A stretch of 64,000 nt of DNA from TPA_inf: Saccharomyces (taxonomy: Eukaryota). Positions 27,999-34,130 of this stretch are shown here, piece after piece. The stretch spans positions 672,001 to 736,000 of the forward strand of contig BK006945.2 of the NCBI GenBank assembly GCA_000146045.2, in the 5' to 3' direction. The position numbers and the translations under genes are program-made. Each line of letters opens with the position of its first letter. Positions within the stretch are counted from its first letter, which is position 1. The notes beneath the pieces were generated by a model that was not told the DNA's origin, did no database searches, and saw nothing but the letters and a program-made list of their open reading frames with translations.

Positions 27999-30900
27999 TC
28001 ACGTTAAAAAGCCGTAGTCATCATTAATCGTCCAAAAGTCTTCTACCGGACCAGATGTCATCATGTTATCCCAGTTAGAACGCTTTTTCCTGATGTCTGC
28101 GTTAGTTACTGTAGGAATAACATTGTCGAAATGCAGATTTGCGCTAGTGTTTGCTTCCACCTGTGTTTTAGGTCCATTCTTCTCTGTTTCGTCAAGATTA
28201 TATTGTACACCTTCCTGATTGGACATCATGAACAAATTTCTGTTATACGAAGGGTCATTCTGCGTCTGTTGAAAATTATTAGCGGTTACATTGTTTTCAG
28301 AACACATATTTTGTTGTTGATGTTGTTGCTGCTGTTTGTCCATGGACAGAGATGAAGGCTCTTGACTCTGGGGAAATATTGTTTGTAGTATGGACTTGCT
28401 ATTCAAAGCATCTAGAACGGAGTTATTGGTCCAGGTGGAAATATTGTTGATCATGTCATGAGCACCGTTGCTGAAAAGTATATCGCCCGAAGAAGAGCCA
28501 TTTCGAGCTTGTTTGACACTGACCGGAATTGAATTGCTAGTAAATGACGCTGGTATCGAGGAGATAATATTATTGCCATAATCTGCTCTTAGGGGTGATG
28601 TACTGAAATTTGATTCTTCGACATCTCTTAATTGCTTATTTTCACTTGTATGGTTAGAGAATATTGCAGATTGTAGAGGATTACTGTTGATCATACCATT
28701 GTTTAATTGATTCGTAAAATTGCTTTCTGAGAATCTTTGTGGAGAAGTAATATGTTGTTGTGGCTGCTCCCGCTGTTGTTGCGGCAGTGGTCGTGATACA
28801 TGCTGTTGCGGTAGCATATTGGAAGTTTGAGGATATGGAGTTGGGCTTTGCGTCATCGCTATTGGAATCGGATCCGAATGCGAAGAGGCTGTAGATATGC
28901 TAGAAGATTTTGAAGGACTTCTATTGGTCATAGTATCGGTGTTCAGGGACGATAGATACGCTTGTAAATTGTGCTGAGCTAGTTGCTGTTGTAGAAAGGC
29001 CTGCTGTTGAAATACTTGCCAATCAAACTCTGTTTGGTTGGTTGGTTTCTTGACGATATATTGGTCTTGAATAGGCCTTTCTACATCATTTTCCATAGTT
29101 ACGTTGTTGTTACGAACATACTGGCTGTTGTTGCCATTATTGCAGCTGTTGTTGGTAGTGCTTCTGCTATTACTTTCATTATCATTATTATTAACATTAT
29201 TATTATTATTACTATTATTATTATTATTGTTATTATTATTATTATTATCATTATTATTGTTGTGATTATTGTTGTGTTCTCTGTTGACGCTGCTGATGGT
29301 CATACCATTGTTATCATTGTTTACATTGATTTTCAGGTTTTTTTCTTGGGAAGAAGGAAACGATAATGTCGACGATGATGACGAAGAAGAAGATGATGAC
29401 GAAGAAGATGTTGTATAAGACATTGAAGAATTTGAAATACGTGACCTGTCATCCATTTTGGTTAATAGGTGAGCTAAACTTTTGGGTACAGAGGTCTTTT
29501 CTAAAACACCTTGCTTCTTCTTGAATTTCTCTTGTTCAGCCAAATCCACTTGTGAATTTTCCACAAAACCGGCGTGCTCTTCAGCTTGTCCTTTACCAAA
29601 TATTCTAGCCACAGCAGGCGGCATACCGCCATTATGAGATATATTTTTATCGTTTGAATTGGATAGATTAGCTGCATTTGCGGAGTTAGAATCATGAAGA
29701 GTATCCCCAGATGAAATTGCCTTATTGGCCTCATCATTGATGTTCTTGGGTTCAGTACGCTTGGCGACACTACTAGCCATGAAAATTAACTCAGAAGAGT
29801 CTGGACCACATCTTTCAATCAAATTACCTACCGTGGCATTCATTAACTGATCGAAAGTATCTCTAAAGGTTCTTGCAAAATTAGACCTTTCTGTCATAAC
29901 ATATAAACAAACGGAGCAAGCTCTCAAATCATCCATCGTCGAAAAGAGACTTGCACTGATTAAAGGTCTAGTATGCTTCGAAGCATCGCCTAATTTCTTC
30001 CTCCTTTGATCGTCAAAATTCCTGGCTAACCACATACAGTAGATTAAAGTTACGCCAGCTACAAAAACCGTATGCACTGCTGGTGTAGAATGACCATTAA
30101 GCGTTTTTTGATGGAATATCTTGTATAACTGACAAATTTGACCCGCAGCAGCTTGACATTCTCTAAATAGTCTATCCTCCGGGGCGAAAAATTCCAAATA
30201 TGGTTGTATAAGCAATCGCACTGATCTATAGTAATAAAGTTTTAGTGTCTCGTTTTCGAAATTTTTCACGTCAAGAGTGGAATAACTTTTTCTCCAAACT
30301 TCCAAATCTTCAAAAAATTTTCGTACTAGGGGCAATTGATCAATGGATTGCTTCACTGACCTGGAATCGTTTTTCAATAGCTGTAAAGTCTCTACAAATT
30401 GAGATTCAATTCTTCGCAGCTTTAGAGACTGATTGATGAATTGCACACCATGGTCATTGGTTGATGGAGCCGCCGCATGCACACCTTTTGTATAAAAAGA
30501 GTCGTTATTGAAAAGAGGTAAATTTATTTCCGACTCCTTGATTGTATAAGGTTTCCCCACAGCAACACAAATCATTCTTTCCAACAGGTAAACACACCAA
30601 AATAGTCGCAGTTTCTTATTTGCAAATGGATCATTAGGATACCATTGATTTAGATGAAGTTTCTTCTTGGATATGCCCATGACATCCTTGATTATGTCAT
30701 ATAGTATCAGAGAATCTCTATCAGTCCTAATAATGTAAAGGACAAGCAATGTCAACAGTTCTATTTGCTGAACATAATTCAAATGTAGACCACACTTAGT
30801 GATGTGACGGATAGCGGTGGAGAAATATCGGTGAGGTGGAAACCCCTTGTACTTACCTGTGGTCATCAGTAAGTAGGCGCTGATGCTGAAGACAAGCCAC

Positions 30901-32024
30901 ATTCTGCCGGATAGAAAATGAAATTCTATTTCAGAATACGAATGTGAATTCGACGGTGGTGCTGCGGAAGACGTGGCGGGAGAAGATGGTGGGATAAGAA
31001 TCTTGTTGTGGAGGTAGTGGTCATAAAAAGTATAGATTTCTTGTTCGTCTAAGATAGGGTACTTGAATTGTAATCTTGTGAAAAAAGTGTCCAAGAAGGA
31101 ACGTGACAGCTTCTCATTCAGTTCAAAAATAGGGTCATACATCAAAAACTCTTTTTTCAAATTGTATTTGGCAAAAATACACTTAGTGAAGTCCAGCGTC
31201 TCTAAAGGGTCATTCAAAAGGCTCGCGGATTGGCAGATAGCATTATTGTTGTTTATGTTGTTCGTACTGGCCGATGTATCGTTAGTGGCCGCATTAACGT
31301 TGCTGCCGTTATTGTTTGTGTTCTCCAGGGGTTTGTTGGAAGGAGATGGCAGCGGCAGTATGACCATATTGCTGCTGTTCGGTCTAGAGTAATCAGAAGT
31401 GTTGTTACTGAACAAATGAGAAACCTTCTTGTACTGGGATAATTCGTAGTTGTACTGGTTGCATCCCGGCGATAAATCGAGCAAAGTCTCCAAACTTTTT
31501 AGTTTTTTCTCCAAGAAAATCGTATACTGATCTTTGTCTTGCCTCATCAGGTTTGGATTGGAATTTGTCGTGACGGACTTTATCGTTTTCCTGAATTCAT
31601 TCGCGTCGCCAGCATCAACATTACTATTGCTAGTGGAAATGGGTTTTATTATCGTCATGTCATTCAGAGAAGTGGCAGCGCCAGCGCCAGCGCCAATACT
31701 GCTATCTTGCAGCTCACGTTTTATTACAGGATGAGGTGTAGGAGGTACAGTGCCAGCTGTAGGGGTGTTGTTGTTGGTGTTACTGTTCGAAGTGGAAGAA
31801 GAGTACTTGGAGGGCTGCACGCACTTTATTCCTGCTTTCAAACAGGCGGTACAACTGGGTAATTTATGGTCGCATCGTTGCTTTCTTCTTCTACAAAGAA
31901 GACAAGACCTGGAACGGCCCTTTTTGTCTTGCAACAAGACGTCTGTCCTGTTACCGGCCAGCTCCAGTTCTCTCTTCAACTGTTGTATTTTCTCCTGGCT
32001 AACATTCTTCCTTGGACGGCCCAT
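27999..32024 (-). CDS. YLR278C: Zn2Cys6 zinc-cluster protein YLR278C, 1341 aa, with long Asn-, Ser- and Gln-rich low-complexity regions.
   Basis: N-terminal CLLCRRRKQRCDHKLPSCTACLKAGIKC. A fungal transcription-factor middle homology region. Poly-N and poly-S tracts. Confidence 0.9.
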   Translation of the reverse strand: MGRPRKNVSQEKIQQLKRELELAGNRTDVLLQDKKGRSRSCLLCRRRKQRCDHKLPSCTACLKAGIKCVQPSKYSSSTSNSNTNNNTPTAGTVPPTPHPVIKRELQDSSIGAGAGAATSLNDMTIIKPISTSNSNVDAGDANEFRKTIKSVTTNSNPNLMRQDKDQYTIFLEKKLKSLETLLDLSPGCNQYNYELSQYKKVSHLFSNNTSDYSRPNSSNMVILPLPSPSNKPLENTNNNGSNVNAATNDTSASTNNINNNNAICQSASLLNDPLETLDFTKCIFAKYNLKKEFLMYDPIFELNEKLSRSFLDTFFTRLQFKYPILDEQEIYTFYDHYLHNKILIPPSSPATSSAAPPSNSHSYSEIEFHFLSGRMWLVFSISAYLLMTTGKYKGFPPHRYFSTAIRHITKCGLHLNYVQQIELLTLLVLYIIRTDRDSLILYDIIKDVMGISKKKLHLNQWYPNDPFANKKLRLFWCVYLLERMICVAVGKPYTIKESEINLPLFNNDSFYTKGVHAAAPSTNDHGVQFINQSLKLRRIESQFVETLQLLKNDSRSVKQSIDQLPLVRKFFEDLEVWRKSYSTLDVKNFENETLKLYYYRSVRLLIQPYLEFFAPEDRLFRECQAAAGQICQLYKIFHQKTLNGHSTPAVHTVFVAGVTLIYCMWLARNFDDQRRKKLGDASKHTRPLISASLFSTMDDLRACSVCLYVMTERSNFARTFRDTFDQLMNATVGNLIERCGPDSSELIFMASSVAKRTEPKNINDEANKAISSGDTLHDSNSANAANLSNSNDKNISHNGGMPPAVARIFGKGQAEEHAGFVENSQVDLAEQEKFKKKQGVLEKTSVPKSLAHLLTKMDDRSRISNSSMSYTTSSSSSSSSSSSSSTLSFPSSQEKNLKINVNNDNNGMTISSVNREHNNNHNNNNDNNNNNNNNNNNSNNNNNVNNNDNESNSRSTTNNSCNNGNNSQYVRNNNVTMENDVERPIQDQYIVKKPTNQTEFDWQVFQQQAFLQQQLAQHNLQAYLSSLNTDTMTNRSPSKSSSISTASSHSDPIPIAMTQSPTPYPQTSNMLPQQHVSRPLPQQQREQPQQHITSPQRFSESNFTNQLNNGMINSNPLQSAIFSNHTSENKQLRDVEESNFSTSPLRADYGNNIISSIPASFTSNSIPVSVKQARNGSSSGDILFSNGAHDMINNISTWTNNSVLDALNSKSILQTIFPQSQEPSSLSMDKQQQQHQQQNMCSENNVTANNFQQTQNDPSYNRNLFMMSNQEGVQYNLDETEKNGPKTQVEANTSANLHFDNVIPTVTNADIRKKRSNWDNMMTSGPVEDFWTINDDYGFLT

Positions 32025-32492
32025 TATTATTTACGTGTATTGTTGGTAGTTAGCCCGAAGATTATGAGTACGTGAAATACACTTGTCTTTATGAAAGAGT
32101 GGAAAAATGGTGGGGAGTAAGTTATACTATTGACGTGTAAAAAAAAAAAAAAAAAAATGTTAATGGAACGACCGATCTAAAGAACCATATATAATGAATG
32201 ACTAAAAAAAGCAAAATAGTTAAGAATCCAAGAAAGATACTAAGAAAAGGCGAAAAGAAAAAGAAAAAGTATGTCCGCTAACAAAGATTAGCGTATAAGC
32301 ACCACACGATGCGATTCAGGTCTCAACGTGCAGTGTGCAGGAGCAGGAACTATTCAATGTATTGTTGTTCCAGGGTTTTTGTTCGCAACCCACGTCTTGA
32401 CCGACGGTACCCGCAGGTGAAAATTTTAGCAAAGTTACACTTTTTTTTTCATTTTTTTTTTTCTTTTCTCCTCCATCTAATTTCACCTGCGG

Positions 32493-32960
32493 TTACCGGC
32501 GGAATAACTCGCGCACCATTTCTCTGTCTCGGGCCTCGCGTTCCTCTTTTTCGACTCGAGCGGCCTCTTCACGCTGCTCGTACTTCGCGACGCTGCGCCG
32601 GCGCTGCGAGCGTTTCTGTTGACGGTGCCACTGTAGAAGCGCCTCCTCTCTGGACGGCATCGTGTCGTACGACGCCGCAAGTTCGCGCGCGAGCTTAAGC
32701 CGGGCAAGCTTTCGATTTTGCTCACGTGACCGCGTTTCTTGGCACTCGACAACGATCCCAGTGGGTTCATGCCGTAGTTGTACCTTAGAATTACACTTAT
32801 TAATCTTTTGGCCACCGGGCCCTCTGCCGCCATGAAGGAATTTCTCAGTGCATTGTGCTTCCATCTCTGGCGTGAACTTTGGTCGCGGTGGTAGCTTGTT
32901 CTTTTTAATCAGCAGCACTGCGGCACTGCTGATTGACCTCTTACTCGCTCCCCTCATCAT
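32493..32960 (-). CDS. YLR281C: Release-factor-family (RF-1/peptidyl-tRNA hydrolase domain, GGQ motif) protein YLR281C, 155 aa. Likely a mitochondrial ribosome-rescue factor.
   Basis: GGQ motif in HGGRGPGGQKINK and a basic C-terminal tail. The coding sequence is strikingly GC/CpG-rich for yeast. Confidence 0.85.
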   Translation of the reverse strand: MMRGASKRSISSAAVLLIKKNKLPPRPKFTPEMEAQCTEKFLHGGRGPGGQKINKCNSKVQLRHEPTGIVVECQETRSREQNRKLARLKLARELAASYDTMPSREEALLQWHRQQKRSQRRRSVAKYEQREEAARVEKEEREARDREMVRELFRR

Positions 32961-33185
32961 AGTTTACTAGTCTCGGATTCTTCTGCGCTTTTTCCAGGGT
33001 CGCATAGCTTGTAGGTTGGTAGCATAGACTTATATATAAACTCATATCCGTTCTAGGAACGTATAGCGCGCTATGGTAGTCCGGGGAAAATGCACAGTTT
33101 AGTTAAGTGTATAGTAATTTTATCGATAAAGGAAGAATGGAAGAGGTTTATGTATACATGTAAACTCTGAACATCTAATAGACTA

Positions 33186-34130
33186 ATGATGCGGTTAATA
33201 CGTACATTGCCGCTTCGATGCTTCAAAACTAGAATACGGCGGCAAGGCTCGTTGTTGTGTTTGCGGTGCTTTAGTTCGTATTCAAAACCACTTTTGCAGA
33301 AATCAATGTCATTGAAAAATATCCAGTTATCAGACCTATCCTCATCGCCATTATCCAAGAACAAGGAGAAGCAGGAGAAGCCAGAGAAGGAAAACGAAGG
33401 AAAGCACTCCATTGGCCTGTTAGACAGATTTTCAGAGGACTTTATTACTCAGGGCAATGGATTGAAACCTACTACTTCACAAAATCAATTGGATACTATA
33501 AAGTTTTATCAAATGCTTCGTGAAAGAGGCAATTTTTCCGATGAACAATGTAAAATTATCATAGCTCTATTGTTGCAACTACTAAATGATCAGTTTTATT
33601 CCTGTTACAATGATTTGTTCTTAAGGGATATGGAGCTGAATAAACAATCACATTTGTTCAGCTCGCTAGAAACAGAATTGAAATTCGCAATTCAAAACTC
33701 TAGAGACACGCAACTAAATGAGCACCACTTGCAATTATTAAAACTCAAGAGAGAACTTAACTCAATCCATGATGAACTGAATGAAATCATAATAGATCTT
33801 TTGCAAAAGGACGCTAAATTAGAATTTAACAATCAAAAATTAGAAAACACCCTTTTGTATCGACAATTAAACCTGAAATTGAACGACTGTTCTAACAAGA
33901 TTCAAACCAAGATACTGGGGGATATCAGGTCACATATCGAAAATTTAAGATGGCAGACAACCAGAAGCGGTCTTTTGGTAATATTAGTCCTTGTTTGTTC
34001 GATTATGATCGGTGTAAGCGCATCTAAGAAGGAACGCCCAGGTTTACAGGAACCTGAGGAACCTGAAATTTTAGCACCAAAGGAAGACATTGATACTACC
34101 TTCCCTCAAGATCAACATGATATAGATTAA
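33186..34130 (+). CDS. YLR283W: YLR283W, a 314 aa coiled-coil protein with a C-terminal transmembrane segment. Probably mitochondrial.
   Basis: A basic/amphipathic N-terminus (MMRLIRTLPLRCFKTRIRRQ) suggests a mitochondrial presequence. Hydrophobic segment LLVILVLVCSIMIGV. Position matches. Confidence 0.8.
   Translation: MMRLIRTLPLRCFKTRIRRQGSLLCLRCFSSYSKPLLQKSMSLKNIQLSDLSSSPLSKNKEKQEKPEKENEGKHSIGLLDRFSEDFITQGNGLKPTTSQNQLDTIKFYQMLRERGNFSDEQCKIIIALLLQLLNDQFYSCYNDLFLRDMELNKQSHLFSSLETELKFAIQNSRDTQLNEHHLQLLKLKRELNSIHDELNEIIIDLLQKDAKLEFNNQKLENTLLYRQLNLKLNDCSNKIQTKILGDIRSHIENLRWQTTRSGLLVILVLVCSIMIGVSASKKERPGLQEPEEPEILAPKEDIDTTFPQDQHDID

Follow-up and report, generated by a model that had tools for sequence, protein, structure and literature searches.

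The window analysed here is a stretch of 64,000 nucleotides of Saccharomyces DNA (GenBank assembly GCA_000146045.2, contig BK006945.2, positions 672,001 to 736,000 of the forward strand), and all positions below are counted from its first letter. The subject of this work is YLR281C (RSO55, also named PTH3), a short gene on the reverse strand whose coding sequence (CDS) forms a GC-rich island, together with its neighbours, the CCDC90-like gene YLR283W and the Zn-cluster gene YLR278C (Table 1). The product of the open reading frame (ORF) 32493-32960(-) is 99% identical to S. cerevisiae Rso55p and matched the Pfam family RF-1 (PF00472) over residues 45-129 with 67.1 bits (E = 1.7e-18) against a cut-off of 35. 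Its GGQ motif lies within GPGGQKINK, and G49, G50 and Q51 are invariant in 18 orthologues, so that the preliminary description of this DNA, which had called the gene product a GGQ-motif protein with a peptidyl-tRNA-hydrolase domain, was correct in this respect. Models of full-length RF1 and RF2 matched residues 46-122 only, and the protein of 155 aa has no codon-recognition domains; its basic C-terminal tail contains 14 Arg and 3 Lys.

It has been reported that YLR281C is the yeast homologue of C12orf65 and encodes a mitochondrial peptidyl-tRNA hydrolase rescuing stalled mitoribosomes (Hoshino et al. 2021, PMC7940416), and experiments reported for S. cerevisiae Pth3 support both its mitochondrial localisation and its hydrolase activity on stalled mitoribosomes (PMC7940416). 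The closest structures in the PDB are C12orf65 from mouse (2rsm_A, E = 5e-15) and human (7a5h_C, E = 3e-14). Rso55 shares with the C12orf65/mtRF-R/Pth3 proteins the GGQ domain, the absence of codon-recognition domains and the basic C-terminal extension, and no difference was found at the family level, although the tails are Arg/Ala-rich in Saccharomyces and Lys-rich in other yeast orthologues. ArfB (YaeJ)/ICT1 (MRPL58, Pth4 in yeast) is likewise a rescue factor for stalled ribosomes, a small GGQ-domain peptidyl-tRNA hydrolase whose basic tail is unstructured. However, identity with ArfB was rejected, because the NCBIfam ArfB equivalogue model NF006718 gave 36 bits against a cut-off of 100 and matched only the 21 residues 45-65 around GGQ; the yeast ArfB/ICT1 orthologue is a separate gene, PTH4/YOL114C (PMC7940416). 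Rso55 belongs to the C12orf65/mtRF-R/Pth3 branch and not to ArfB/ICT1, and both the gene and the family were already known.

The GC content of the RSO55 CDS is 0.558-0.561, against 0.369 for the whole window. Among all 300-nt segments, the highest GC content is that of the island summit (z ~5; Table 1), and the runner-up anywhere in the 64 kb reaches 0.527. The CpG count also has its maximum here: the 300-nt segment starting at 32478 contains 41, whereas segments average 8.2 (sd 3.7). RSO55 is the sole outlier among the 32 ORFs of at least 150 aa. Its GC contents at the first, second and third codon positions (GC1, GC2 and GC3) are 0.63, 0.45 and 0.60, deviant at all three positions, and its CpG density of 10.0 per 100 nt is about five times the usual value (1.7-3.9 in other long ORFs). 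If the Rso55 protein were encoded with the local codon usage, a GC content of 0.443 +/- 0.014 would be expected, and the observed value exceeds this by z = 8.7 in terms of codon sampling. The deviation is visible in individual codon families: CGN makes up 19 of the 24 Arg codons (31% in the pooled neighbours), CTN 11 of the 12 Leu codons (42%), and GCG 6 of the 13 Ala codons (12%). The two checks proposed beforehand, windowed GC and a comparison of codon usage and GC3 with the neighbours, therefore both set the YLR281C region apart, and the coding region is GC-rich and the most extreme composition in the window, as had been claimed.

The extent and nature of the island differ from what was first described. 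In blocks of 60 nt, GC is 0.57-0.62 over the last 290 nt of RSO55, compared with 0.47-0.50 over the first 180 nt. The island was said to start at 32290 and to include the sequence just downstream of the gene, but its measured start is at about 32480, and the DNA on the 3' side of RSO55 (32309-32492) has a GC content of only 0.418 and contains long T runs. The term CpG-rich is correct in so far as CpG count and density are raised. However, GpC is as enriched as CpG in the island (observed/expected ratios, o/e, of 1.36 and 1.31), and the CpG excess thus reflects the use of CGN and GCG codons. The island falls within the numerical definition of vertebrate CpG islands (longer than 200 nt, GC above 50%, CpG o/e above 0.6), but it is not of the vertebrate type, since the background CpG o/e is already 0.81 in this window and GpC behaves alike, as a codon-usage effect would have it. 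S. cerevisiae is not known to have cytosine methylation, and hence no methylation-escape logic applies to its CpG.

Table 1 Genes, composition features, overlapping reading frames and structural elements at the RSO55 locus (positions in the window)
Feature	Position	Strand	Basis and remarks
RSO55/PTH3 (YLR281C) CDS, 155 aa	32493..32960	-	ORF and Pfam RF-1; core of the GC/CpG-rich island
Island summit, 3' two-thirds of RSO55 (basic C-terminal extension)	32486..32785		Highest 300-nt GC, 0.603
Zn-cluster gene (YLR278C), first ~450 codons; silent-site shoulder	30674..32024	-	GC3 per 50 codons 0.44-0.60
CCDC90-like gene (YLR283W), first ~100 codons; weaker shoulder	33186..33485	+	GC3 0.48-0.50 vs 0.32-0.42 further in
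RSO55 3' region / YLR278C promoter, 468 bp, AT-rich	32025..32492		GC 0.35; putative recombination-initiation site
Divergent RSO55/YLR283W promoter, 225 bp	32961..33185		GC 0.38 in S. cerevisiae, 0.48-0.49 in S. uvarum/S. eubayanus; candidate second initiation site
Antisense ORF, 129 aa	32309..32698	+	No Pfam match; by-product of low stop-codon density
Same-strand +1-frame ORF, 116 aa	32483..32833	-	Stop-free frame in 7/7 species; probably a by-product
12-bp stem with 4-nt loop (DNA palindrome), codons 9-18 of RSO55	32907..32934	-	Minimum free energy fold
22-nt inverted repeat spanning the RSO55 stop codon	arms 32401-32422, 32481-32502	-	Arms 91% complementary

The S. cerevisiae locus was compared, with flanks of at most 10 kb, with those of S. 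uvarum, S. arboricola, S. kudriavzevii and S. eubayanus and with two loci referred to as S. paradoxus-like and S. mikatae-like, which were named after their YSH1 sequences, 91.5% and 86.7% identical to that of S. cerevisiae at the nucleotide level. Syntenic orthologues of Z. rouxii, V. polyspora, K. lactis, N. glabratus and K. africana served as outgroups. One homologue with 60% identity, P0008 (a Logan contig of 1022 bp), was left out as an apparent chimeric assembly; its N-terminal half matches the S. mikatae-like Rso55 with full identity, and its C-terminal half resembles Kluyveromyces.

The island is present in all seven Saccharomyces species, with a CDS GC of 0.52-0.64 and a GC3 of 0.54-0.79, and in each of them the GC peak occupies the last 200-300 nt of RSO55. 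Codon counts were tabulated for three species, in which CGN supplies 17-19 of the 22-24 Arg codons and CpG reaches about 10-13 per 100 nt; the other Saccharomyces species have a like CGN pattern in the codon alignment. In contrast, none of the five outgroups has an island. Their CDS GC is 0.31-0.45 (z <1.1), only 1-5 Arg codons are CGN, and the GC3 of the RF-1 gene lies inside the range of the neighbouring genes. At 33 further homologue loci on metagenome contigs from diverse eukaryotes the median z is 0.63 with one value above 3, and at the AT-rich yeast-like loci L014-L020 the gene differs from its flanks by only -0.02 to +0.04 in GC. The island arose only within the genus Saccharomyces, after its split from the sister genera. 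GC-richness is therefore conserved in Saccharomyces but not in Saccharomycetaceae at large, where the orthologues of five other species are ordinary. The preliminary description had itself counted ordinary orthologues as the mark of a lineage-specific quirk; such orthologues are what is found outside Saccharomyces, and the anomaly is thus a lineage-specific compositional event.

A GC requirement intrinsic to the gene was considered and rejected, as no comparable island exists in the five syntenic outgroups or at the 33 metagenome loci. A weak exception is L012:10001-10531 (Logan SRR6475891, a very AT-rich member of Saccharomycetaceae), where the RSO55 orthologue has a GC content of 0.46 in a locus of GC 0.28. 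Its GC3 is 0.39 compared with 0.06-0.24 in the neighbouring genes, its CGN fraction is inside the range of these neighbours, and its protein is Arg-rich, with a proportion of Arg among basic residues, R/(R+K), of 0.68. In this yeast, the GC content of the gene may have risen independently a second time, although more weakly.

The gene order of CCDC90-like gene, RF-1 gene, Zn-cluster gene and YSH1 is kept across Saccharomycetaceae (12 loci), which indicates vertical inheritance of RSO55. The atypical composition had originally been connected with the bacterial-type domain of the protein. This connection does not hold, because the outgroup orthologues are ordinary in composition, with Arg mostly encoded by AGR, and synteny is conserved; neither bacterial ancestry nor a recent transfer is the cause of the composition. 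On the same two grounds, a bacterial origin by horizontal gene transfer (HGT) was ruled out.

The codon alignment shows in which direction the gene has changed. At Arg sites conserved throughout the family (in PPR, TRSR, NRK and AR), the outgroups use AGA or AGG, whereas every Saccharomyces species uses CGN. Further shifts in Saccharomyces are from Ile ATH to Leu CTY and, among Leu codons, from TTR to CTN, and in the tail Lys AAR was replaced by CGN or CAG. As a result, a Lys-rich outgroup tail such as KKSKERKAKGKHE stands against an Arg/Gln/Ala-rich Saccharomyces tail, KRSQRRRSVAKYE...REEAAR.... R/(R+K) is at least 0.61 in the six Saccharomyces species listed, compared with 0.39 +/- 0.08 in 111 other homologues, and is matched only by Eremothecium gossypii / A. 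aceris (0.65), with a GC-rich genome, and by the L012 protein; the AT-richer E. cymbalariae retains a Lys-rich tail. The 18-point GC excess of RSO55 over its neighbours can be divided into about 2 points for the amino-acid composition of the family, about 4 for the amino-acid shift in Saccharomyces and about 12 for synonymous choice. Synonymous choice accounts for about two-thirds of the excess, and the amino-acid shift, from Lys to Arg and Ala in the tail, for about one-third. The AT>GC shift affected synonymous and non-synonymous sites alike, while non-coding DNA was raised only in S. uvarum/S. eubayanus and not in the flanks of S. cerevisiae.

The profiles of YLR284C, YLR283W, RSO55, YLR278C and YSH1 in 6-7 species show that GC3 declines with distance from RSO55. 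In S. cerevisiae, the GC3 of YLR278C falls from its raised 5' shoulder to 0.26-0.48 beyond the first ~450 codons. Five other Saccharomyces species show this gradient too, most steeply S. uvarum and S. eubayanus (0.44-0.72 over the first ~500 codons). In the latter two species, GC3 is 0.76-0.79 in RSO55, 0.57-0.58 in YLR283W as a whole gene and 0.54-0.56 in YLR284C. YSH1, about 5 kb away, is at the background level (0.29-0.35; 0.33-0.35 in S. uvarum/S. eubayanus). The intergenic DNA on both sides of RSO55 has a GC content of 0.42-0.49 in S. uvarum/S. eubayanus, compared with 0.35-0.38 in S. cerevisiae. Since silent-site GC is raised in the neighbouring genes, the anomaly is regional and not a property of the RSO55 CDS alone. 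RSO55 is the summit of a GC-rich domain which extends over about 3 kb in S. cerevisiae and is broader and stronger in S. uvarum/S. eubayanus.

The direction of substitution was reconstructed by parsimony, counting changes from G or C to A or T (strong to weak, S>W) and the reverse (W>S). Over all codon positions of the S. cerevisiae-S. arboricola clade, 114 changes were S>W and 55 W>S, and one internal branch of this clade carried 17 S>W changes and a single W>S change. At third positions, the S. cerevisiae clade had 34 W>S and 59 S>W changes, which implies an equilibrium GC3 of 0.44 compared with the current 0.54-0.62. On the terminal branches of S. uvarum and S. eubayanus the two directions were balanced (10 W>S and 9 S>W), and the equilibrium that they imply, 0.79, is also the current value. 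The island thus seems to lose GC in the S. cerevisiae clade and to have reached equilibrium in S. uvarum/S. eubayanus, and the Saccharomyces ancestor was probably richer in GC at RSO55 than present S. cerevisiae. Divergence at four-fold degenerate sites between species pairs is 0.20-0.56 in RSO55, equal to that of YLR283W, YLR278C and YSH1 (0.13-0.51). An Rfam scan of 31800-33400 returned nothing at E <= 1, and RNAalifold gave a negligible covariation term (-1.16) for the RSO55 CDS with its 3' untranslated region (3'UTR). Taken as a whole, the silent sites of RSO55 gave no indication of extra selection.

The apparent S>W erosion in most lineages, together with the atypical composition, would also be expected if the gene or a block of a few kb had been replaced in the Saccharomyces ancestor from a GC-rich relative or another donor and had been ameliorating since. 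The orthologue of Eremothecium gossypii, whose genome is GC-rich, is among those with the highest identity outside the genus (60%), and Lachancea kluyveri is known to carry GC-rich blocks acquired by introgression (PMC9246145, PMC7449078). Nevertheless, such a foreign origin is very unlikely, and neither the gene order nor the nearest homologues conflict with the species tree, as judged without a formal tree. The gene order on both sides is identical in all Saccharomycetaceae loci, the best protein matches are all Saccharomycetaceae orthologues while bacterial release-factor models reach 36-52 bits, and the likeness to E. gossypii is expected from convergent enrichment in Arg and Ala. Moreover, GC3 forms a gradient over the neighbouring genes without a sharp-edged block, and the island is apparently at equilibrium in S. 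uvarum/S. eubayanus.

The W>S shift at all site classes, the gradient over the neighbours, the lineage-specific gain and decay and the absence of extra constraint on silent sites together constitute a signature of GC-biased gene conversion (gBGC). On balance we favour, with a little more than even confidence, the reading that the Saccharomyces-specific island results from GC-biased gene conversion around the two flanking promoters; we infer that gene conversion acted rather than another GC-favouring force, and that these promoters are hotspots. Under this mechanism, a fixation bias of G/C over A/T would have acted on every class of sites around the very short RSO55 after the Saccharomyces split. 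It would have exchanged AGA/AGG for CGN, TTR for CTN, A/T-ending for G/C-ending codons and Ile for Leu, and Lys (AAR) in the basic C-terminal extension would have given way to Arg (CGN), Gln (CAG) and Ala. The driver would be gBGC spreading from sites of meiotic recombination initiation in two nucleosome-free promoters on either side of RSO55. Since the whole gene of 468 nt would then lie within a few hundred nt of a likely initiation site, it would form the summit. The bias may still operate in the S. uvarum/S. eubayanus lineage and may have weakened in the S. cerevisiae clade, where the island would be slowly decaying.

For the promoter of YLR278C, we infer a putative nucleosome-free, recombination-initiating character from its letters, because poly(dA:dT) tracts typically exclude nucleosomes; it contains an A19 run at 32139-32157 and tandem T9CATT / T9CTTT runs in 32441-32466. 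The same RSO55-YLR278C intergenic region includes, at 32160-32330 (alignment columns ~140-240), blocks which are near-invariant in six Saccharomyces species, for example AACAACAATACA, CTGCTCCTGCACACTGCACGT and ATCGCATCGTGTGGTGCTTATA. These are presumably promoter or 3'-end signals.

Gene conversion of this kind has precedents in yeast. GC-ending codons of all kinds become less frequent with gene length and with distance into the gene and more frequent with recombination (PMC3096941), and conversion gradients from double-strand breaks in promoters were offered as the cause of this pattern (Stoletzki 2011, PMC3096941). A crossover-linked transmission bias of b = 0.013 was measured (Lesecque et al. 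2013, PMC3649680), and strong, physically clustered GC3-rich regions were described in S. uvarum (Cope & Shah 2022, PMC9246145). The RSO55 island resembles these GC3-rich peaks of Saccharomyces (PMC3096941, PMC3649680, PMC9246145) in several respects. Codons ending in G or C are over-represented irrespective of translational optimality, a short gene near promoters shows the strongest effect, with a gradient over its neighbours, S. uvarum exceeds S. cerevisiae, and amino-acid usage is shifted towards GC. The island differs in an amplitude that is unusually high for a yeast gene: GC is raised by 19 points, GC3 reaches 0.79, the CGN fraction is 0.79 and the C-terminal tail has been rewritten.

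Several points weigh against gene conversion as the cause. Outcrossing is rare in S. cerevisiae. To reach a GC3 of 0.8, a local bias must be strong or act over a long time, and the gBGC measured in S. cerevisiae is weak (PMC3649680). The intergenic DNA beside RSO55 is not GC-rich in S. cerevisiae (0.35-0.38), which fits either purifying selection on AT-rich promoter and terminator signals or a cause limited to the CDS. The weaker GC blip at L012 hints at a gene-specific component. Furthermore, parsimony is biased to common-to-rare changes and inflates the apparent erosion, so that the size of the erosion is uncertain; the control gene YSH1 also has an implied equilibrium GC3 (0.41) that departs from the observed value (0.29-0.31) in the S. 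cerevisiae clade. In the literature that could be searched, no paper was found that links YLR278C to a recombination hotspot, and the papers found on YLR281C/RSO55 and the neighbouring ORFs were functional or screen papers only, in which the composition of RSO55 is not mentioned.

The regional, all-site-class and lineage-specific features would be produced equally by a local mutational bias, in which error-prone repair or changes associated with replication or transcription raised AT>GC mutation in a region of about 3 kb in Saccharomyces, and the sequence comparisons fit a bias of mutation and a bias of fixation equally well. Even so, we regard this explanation as quite unlikely. We know of no mechanism that would target a stable spot of 1-3 kb over tens of millions of years. 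The spontaneous mutation spectrum of yeast is AT-biased, and the documented local force favouring GC is conversion (PMC3649680, PMC3096941).

Selection at the level of codons or mRNA is another explanation, in which rare CG codons or a GC-rich structure were favoured in RSO55 or its transcript carries functional structures. Such selection might pace or throttle the cytosolic translation of a short mitochondrial precursor, so that a peptidyl-tRNA hydrolase which could do harm stays at low levels, or so that co-translational targeting has enough time. No codons of the local pool are rarer than those concerned (CGG, CGC, CGA, GCG, CCG, ACG and TCG), in S. cerevisiae the anomaly ends at the borders of the CDS, and GC is elevated in the L012 orthologue too. 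In addition, the RSO55 mRNA folds better than dinucleotide shuffles (z = -3.26), and a hairpin over codons 9-18 (Table 1) is kept in six of the seven Saccharomyces species (folding z -2.1 to -5.4) and absent in all six outgroups (6/6). Across the seven species 92.9% of the alignment cells of this hairpin are paired, and in S. arboricola and S. uvarum its 28 nt form a perfect palindrome. Three pairs have changed on both sides, through amino-acid-altering substitutions; for example, AGT>GGC is coupled with CTG>CCG, giving Ser>Gly and Leu>Pro. The same pairing was reached by only 4 of 500 shuffles, and slid registers pair at most 57%. Possible roles of the hairpin are those of a functional element of the mRNA or DNA, of a signal for translation or targeting, or of a palindrome bound by protein; it could also have arisen by template switching that perfects palindromes. 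Nevertheless, codon or mRNA selection as the cause of the island is unlikely. Ordinary codons suffice in the five syntenic orthologues and at several yeast-like loci, the neighbouring genes and the intergenic DNA of S. uvarum/S. eubayanus are shifted as well, synonymous divergence is not reduced, the island is apparently decaying in the S. cerevisiae clade, and GC-directed amino-acid changes are not predicted by such selection.

Two further structures were observed. The inverted repeat at the RSO55 stop codon (Table 1) has an A-rich spacer of 58 nt, covers the stop codon and 3'UTR and lies within the YLR278C promoter. Six species have conserved its core, CCGCAGGTGAAA ... TTTCA(C/G)CTGCGGG; 88% of the cells of the repeat are paired in these species, and no compensatory changes were seen. 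Since it is conserved without compensatory changes, the repeat looks more like a putative pair of protein-binding sites than an RNA stem. RNAalifold also predicted a second short hairpin at 32550-32575 (alignment columns 387-410), in the GC-rich 3' half of the CDS, with one pair that is A-U in three species and G-C in three others.

The YLR281C region carries two long ORFs overlapping RSO55 (Table 1), at positions which we take to be those of the dubious ORFs YLR279W (32309-32698(+)) and YLR280C (32483-32833(-)). Both had been described as antisense to YLR281C. This is right for 32309-32698(+), whereas 32483-32833 is on the same strand as the gene, in the +1 frame. The explanation given for them, that the composition keeps additional frames open, is consistent with our results. 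The antisense open frame is no longer than synonymous-codon shuffles predict (p = 0.4-0.9), and an ATG-initiated ORF is found in this frame only in S. cerevisiae and the S. paradoxus-like locus. Long stop-free frames in GC-rich DNA are a known effect (Vakirlis et al., bioRxiv 10.1101/119768). As in the fortuitous ORFs of GC-rich, recombination-hot yeast regions (bioRxiv 10.1101/119768), AT-rich stop codons are rare on both strands here. The difference is that the ORFs at RSO55 overlap a conserved gene rather than intergenic DNA, and conservation at the protein level was not seen.

The +1 frame has some features that would be expected if it, or the antisense frame, were a real gene and the avoidance of stop codons kept the region GC-rich. 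It is stop-free over about 137 codons in all seven Saccharomyces species (p 0.02-0.2 per species by synonymous shuffles), and within this stretch Leu, Val and Ile codons ending in TA never precede codons starting with A or G (p = 0.0075 in S. cerevisiae), although the TA-ending codons sit in the less GC-rich 5' half of RSO55 and the test is confounded with the 5'-3' GC gradient. Combinations of TA-ending codons with A- or G-starting codons are common in the outgroups. We nevertheless hold dual coding to be extremely unlikely. No ATG is conserved in the +1 frame across the seven species (none is present in S. arboricola, and the ORF has no more than 29 codons in S. uvarum), the identity of the +1-frame protein is 0.48-0.79 compared with 0.87-0.97 for the main frame, and four-fold divergence is normal, as in the neighbouring genes. 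Neither overlapping ORF has a Pfam match, the antisense frames are of expected length, and the five alternative frames were examined post hoc. Both ORFs are probably by-products of low stop-codon density, although the +1 frame is unusually open.

The hairpin, the inverted repeat and the stop-free +1 frame may also be considered together. The GC-richness of RSO55 in Saccharomyces could be kept at least partly by selection on the nucleic acid, either as a structure-based control of the expression or mitochondrial targeting of the RSO55 mRNA or because it permits a frameshifted or alternative product. We give little credence to this possibility; if it were true, the weaker blip at L012 would be a second, independent case.

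We regard the RSO55 island as a known phenomenon in extreme form rather than as a sign of foreign origin or of a new type of element. The gene, its function and the recombination-linked GC peaks of yeast were known already, and what is added here is an unusually clean and extreme case. A non-adaptive GC bias apparently rewrote most Arg and Leu codons of RSO55 into the rarest codons of yeast; it would also have changed the functional basic tail from Lys-rich to Arg/Ala-rich and created spurious long ORFs. A contrast is built into the locus, as the outgroups lack the island, the S. cerevisiae clade is seemingly losing it and S. uvarum/S. eubayanus seemingly maintain it. The locus is useful for separating gBGC from selection on codon usage. 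For annotation and HGT screens it is a caution, as an atypical composition combined with a bacterial-type domain need not mean horizontal transfer. Finally, the native codons of RSO55 are expected to make its translation poor, which may matter for work on Pth3.

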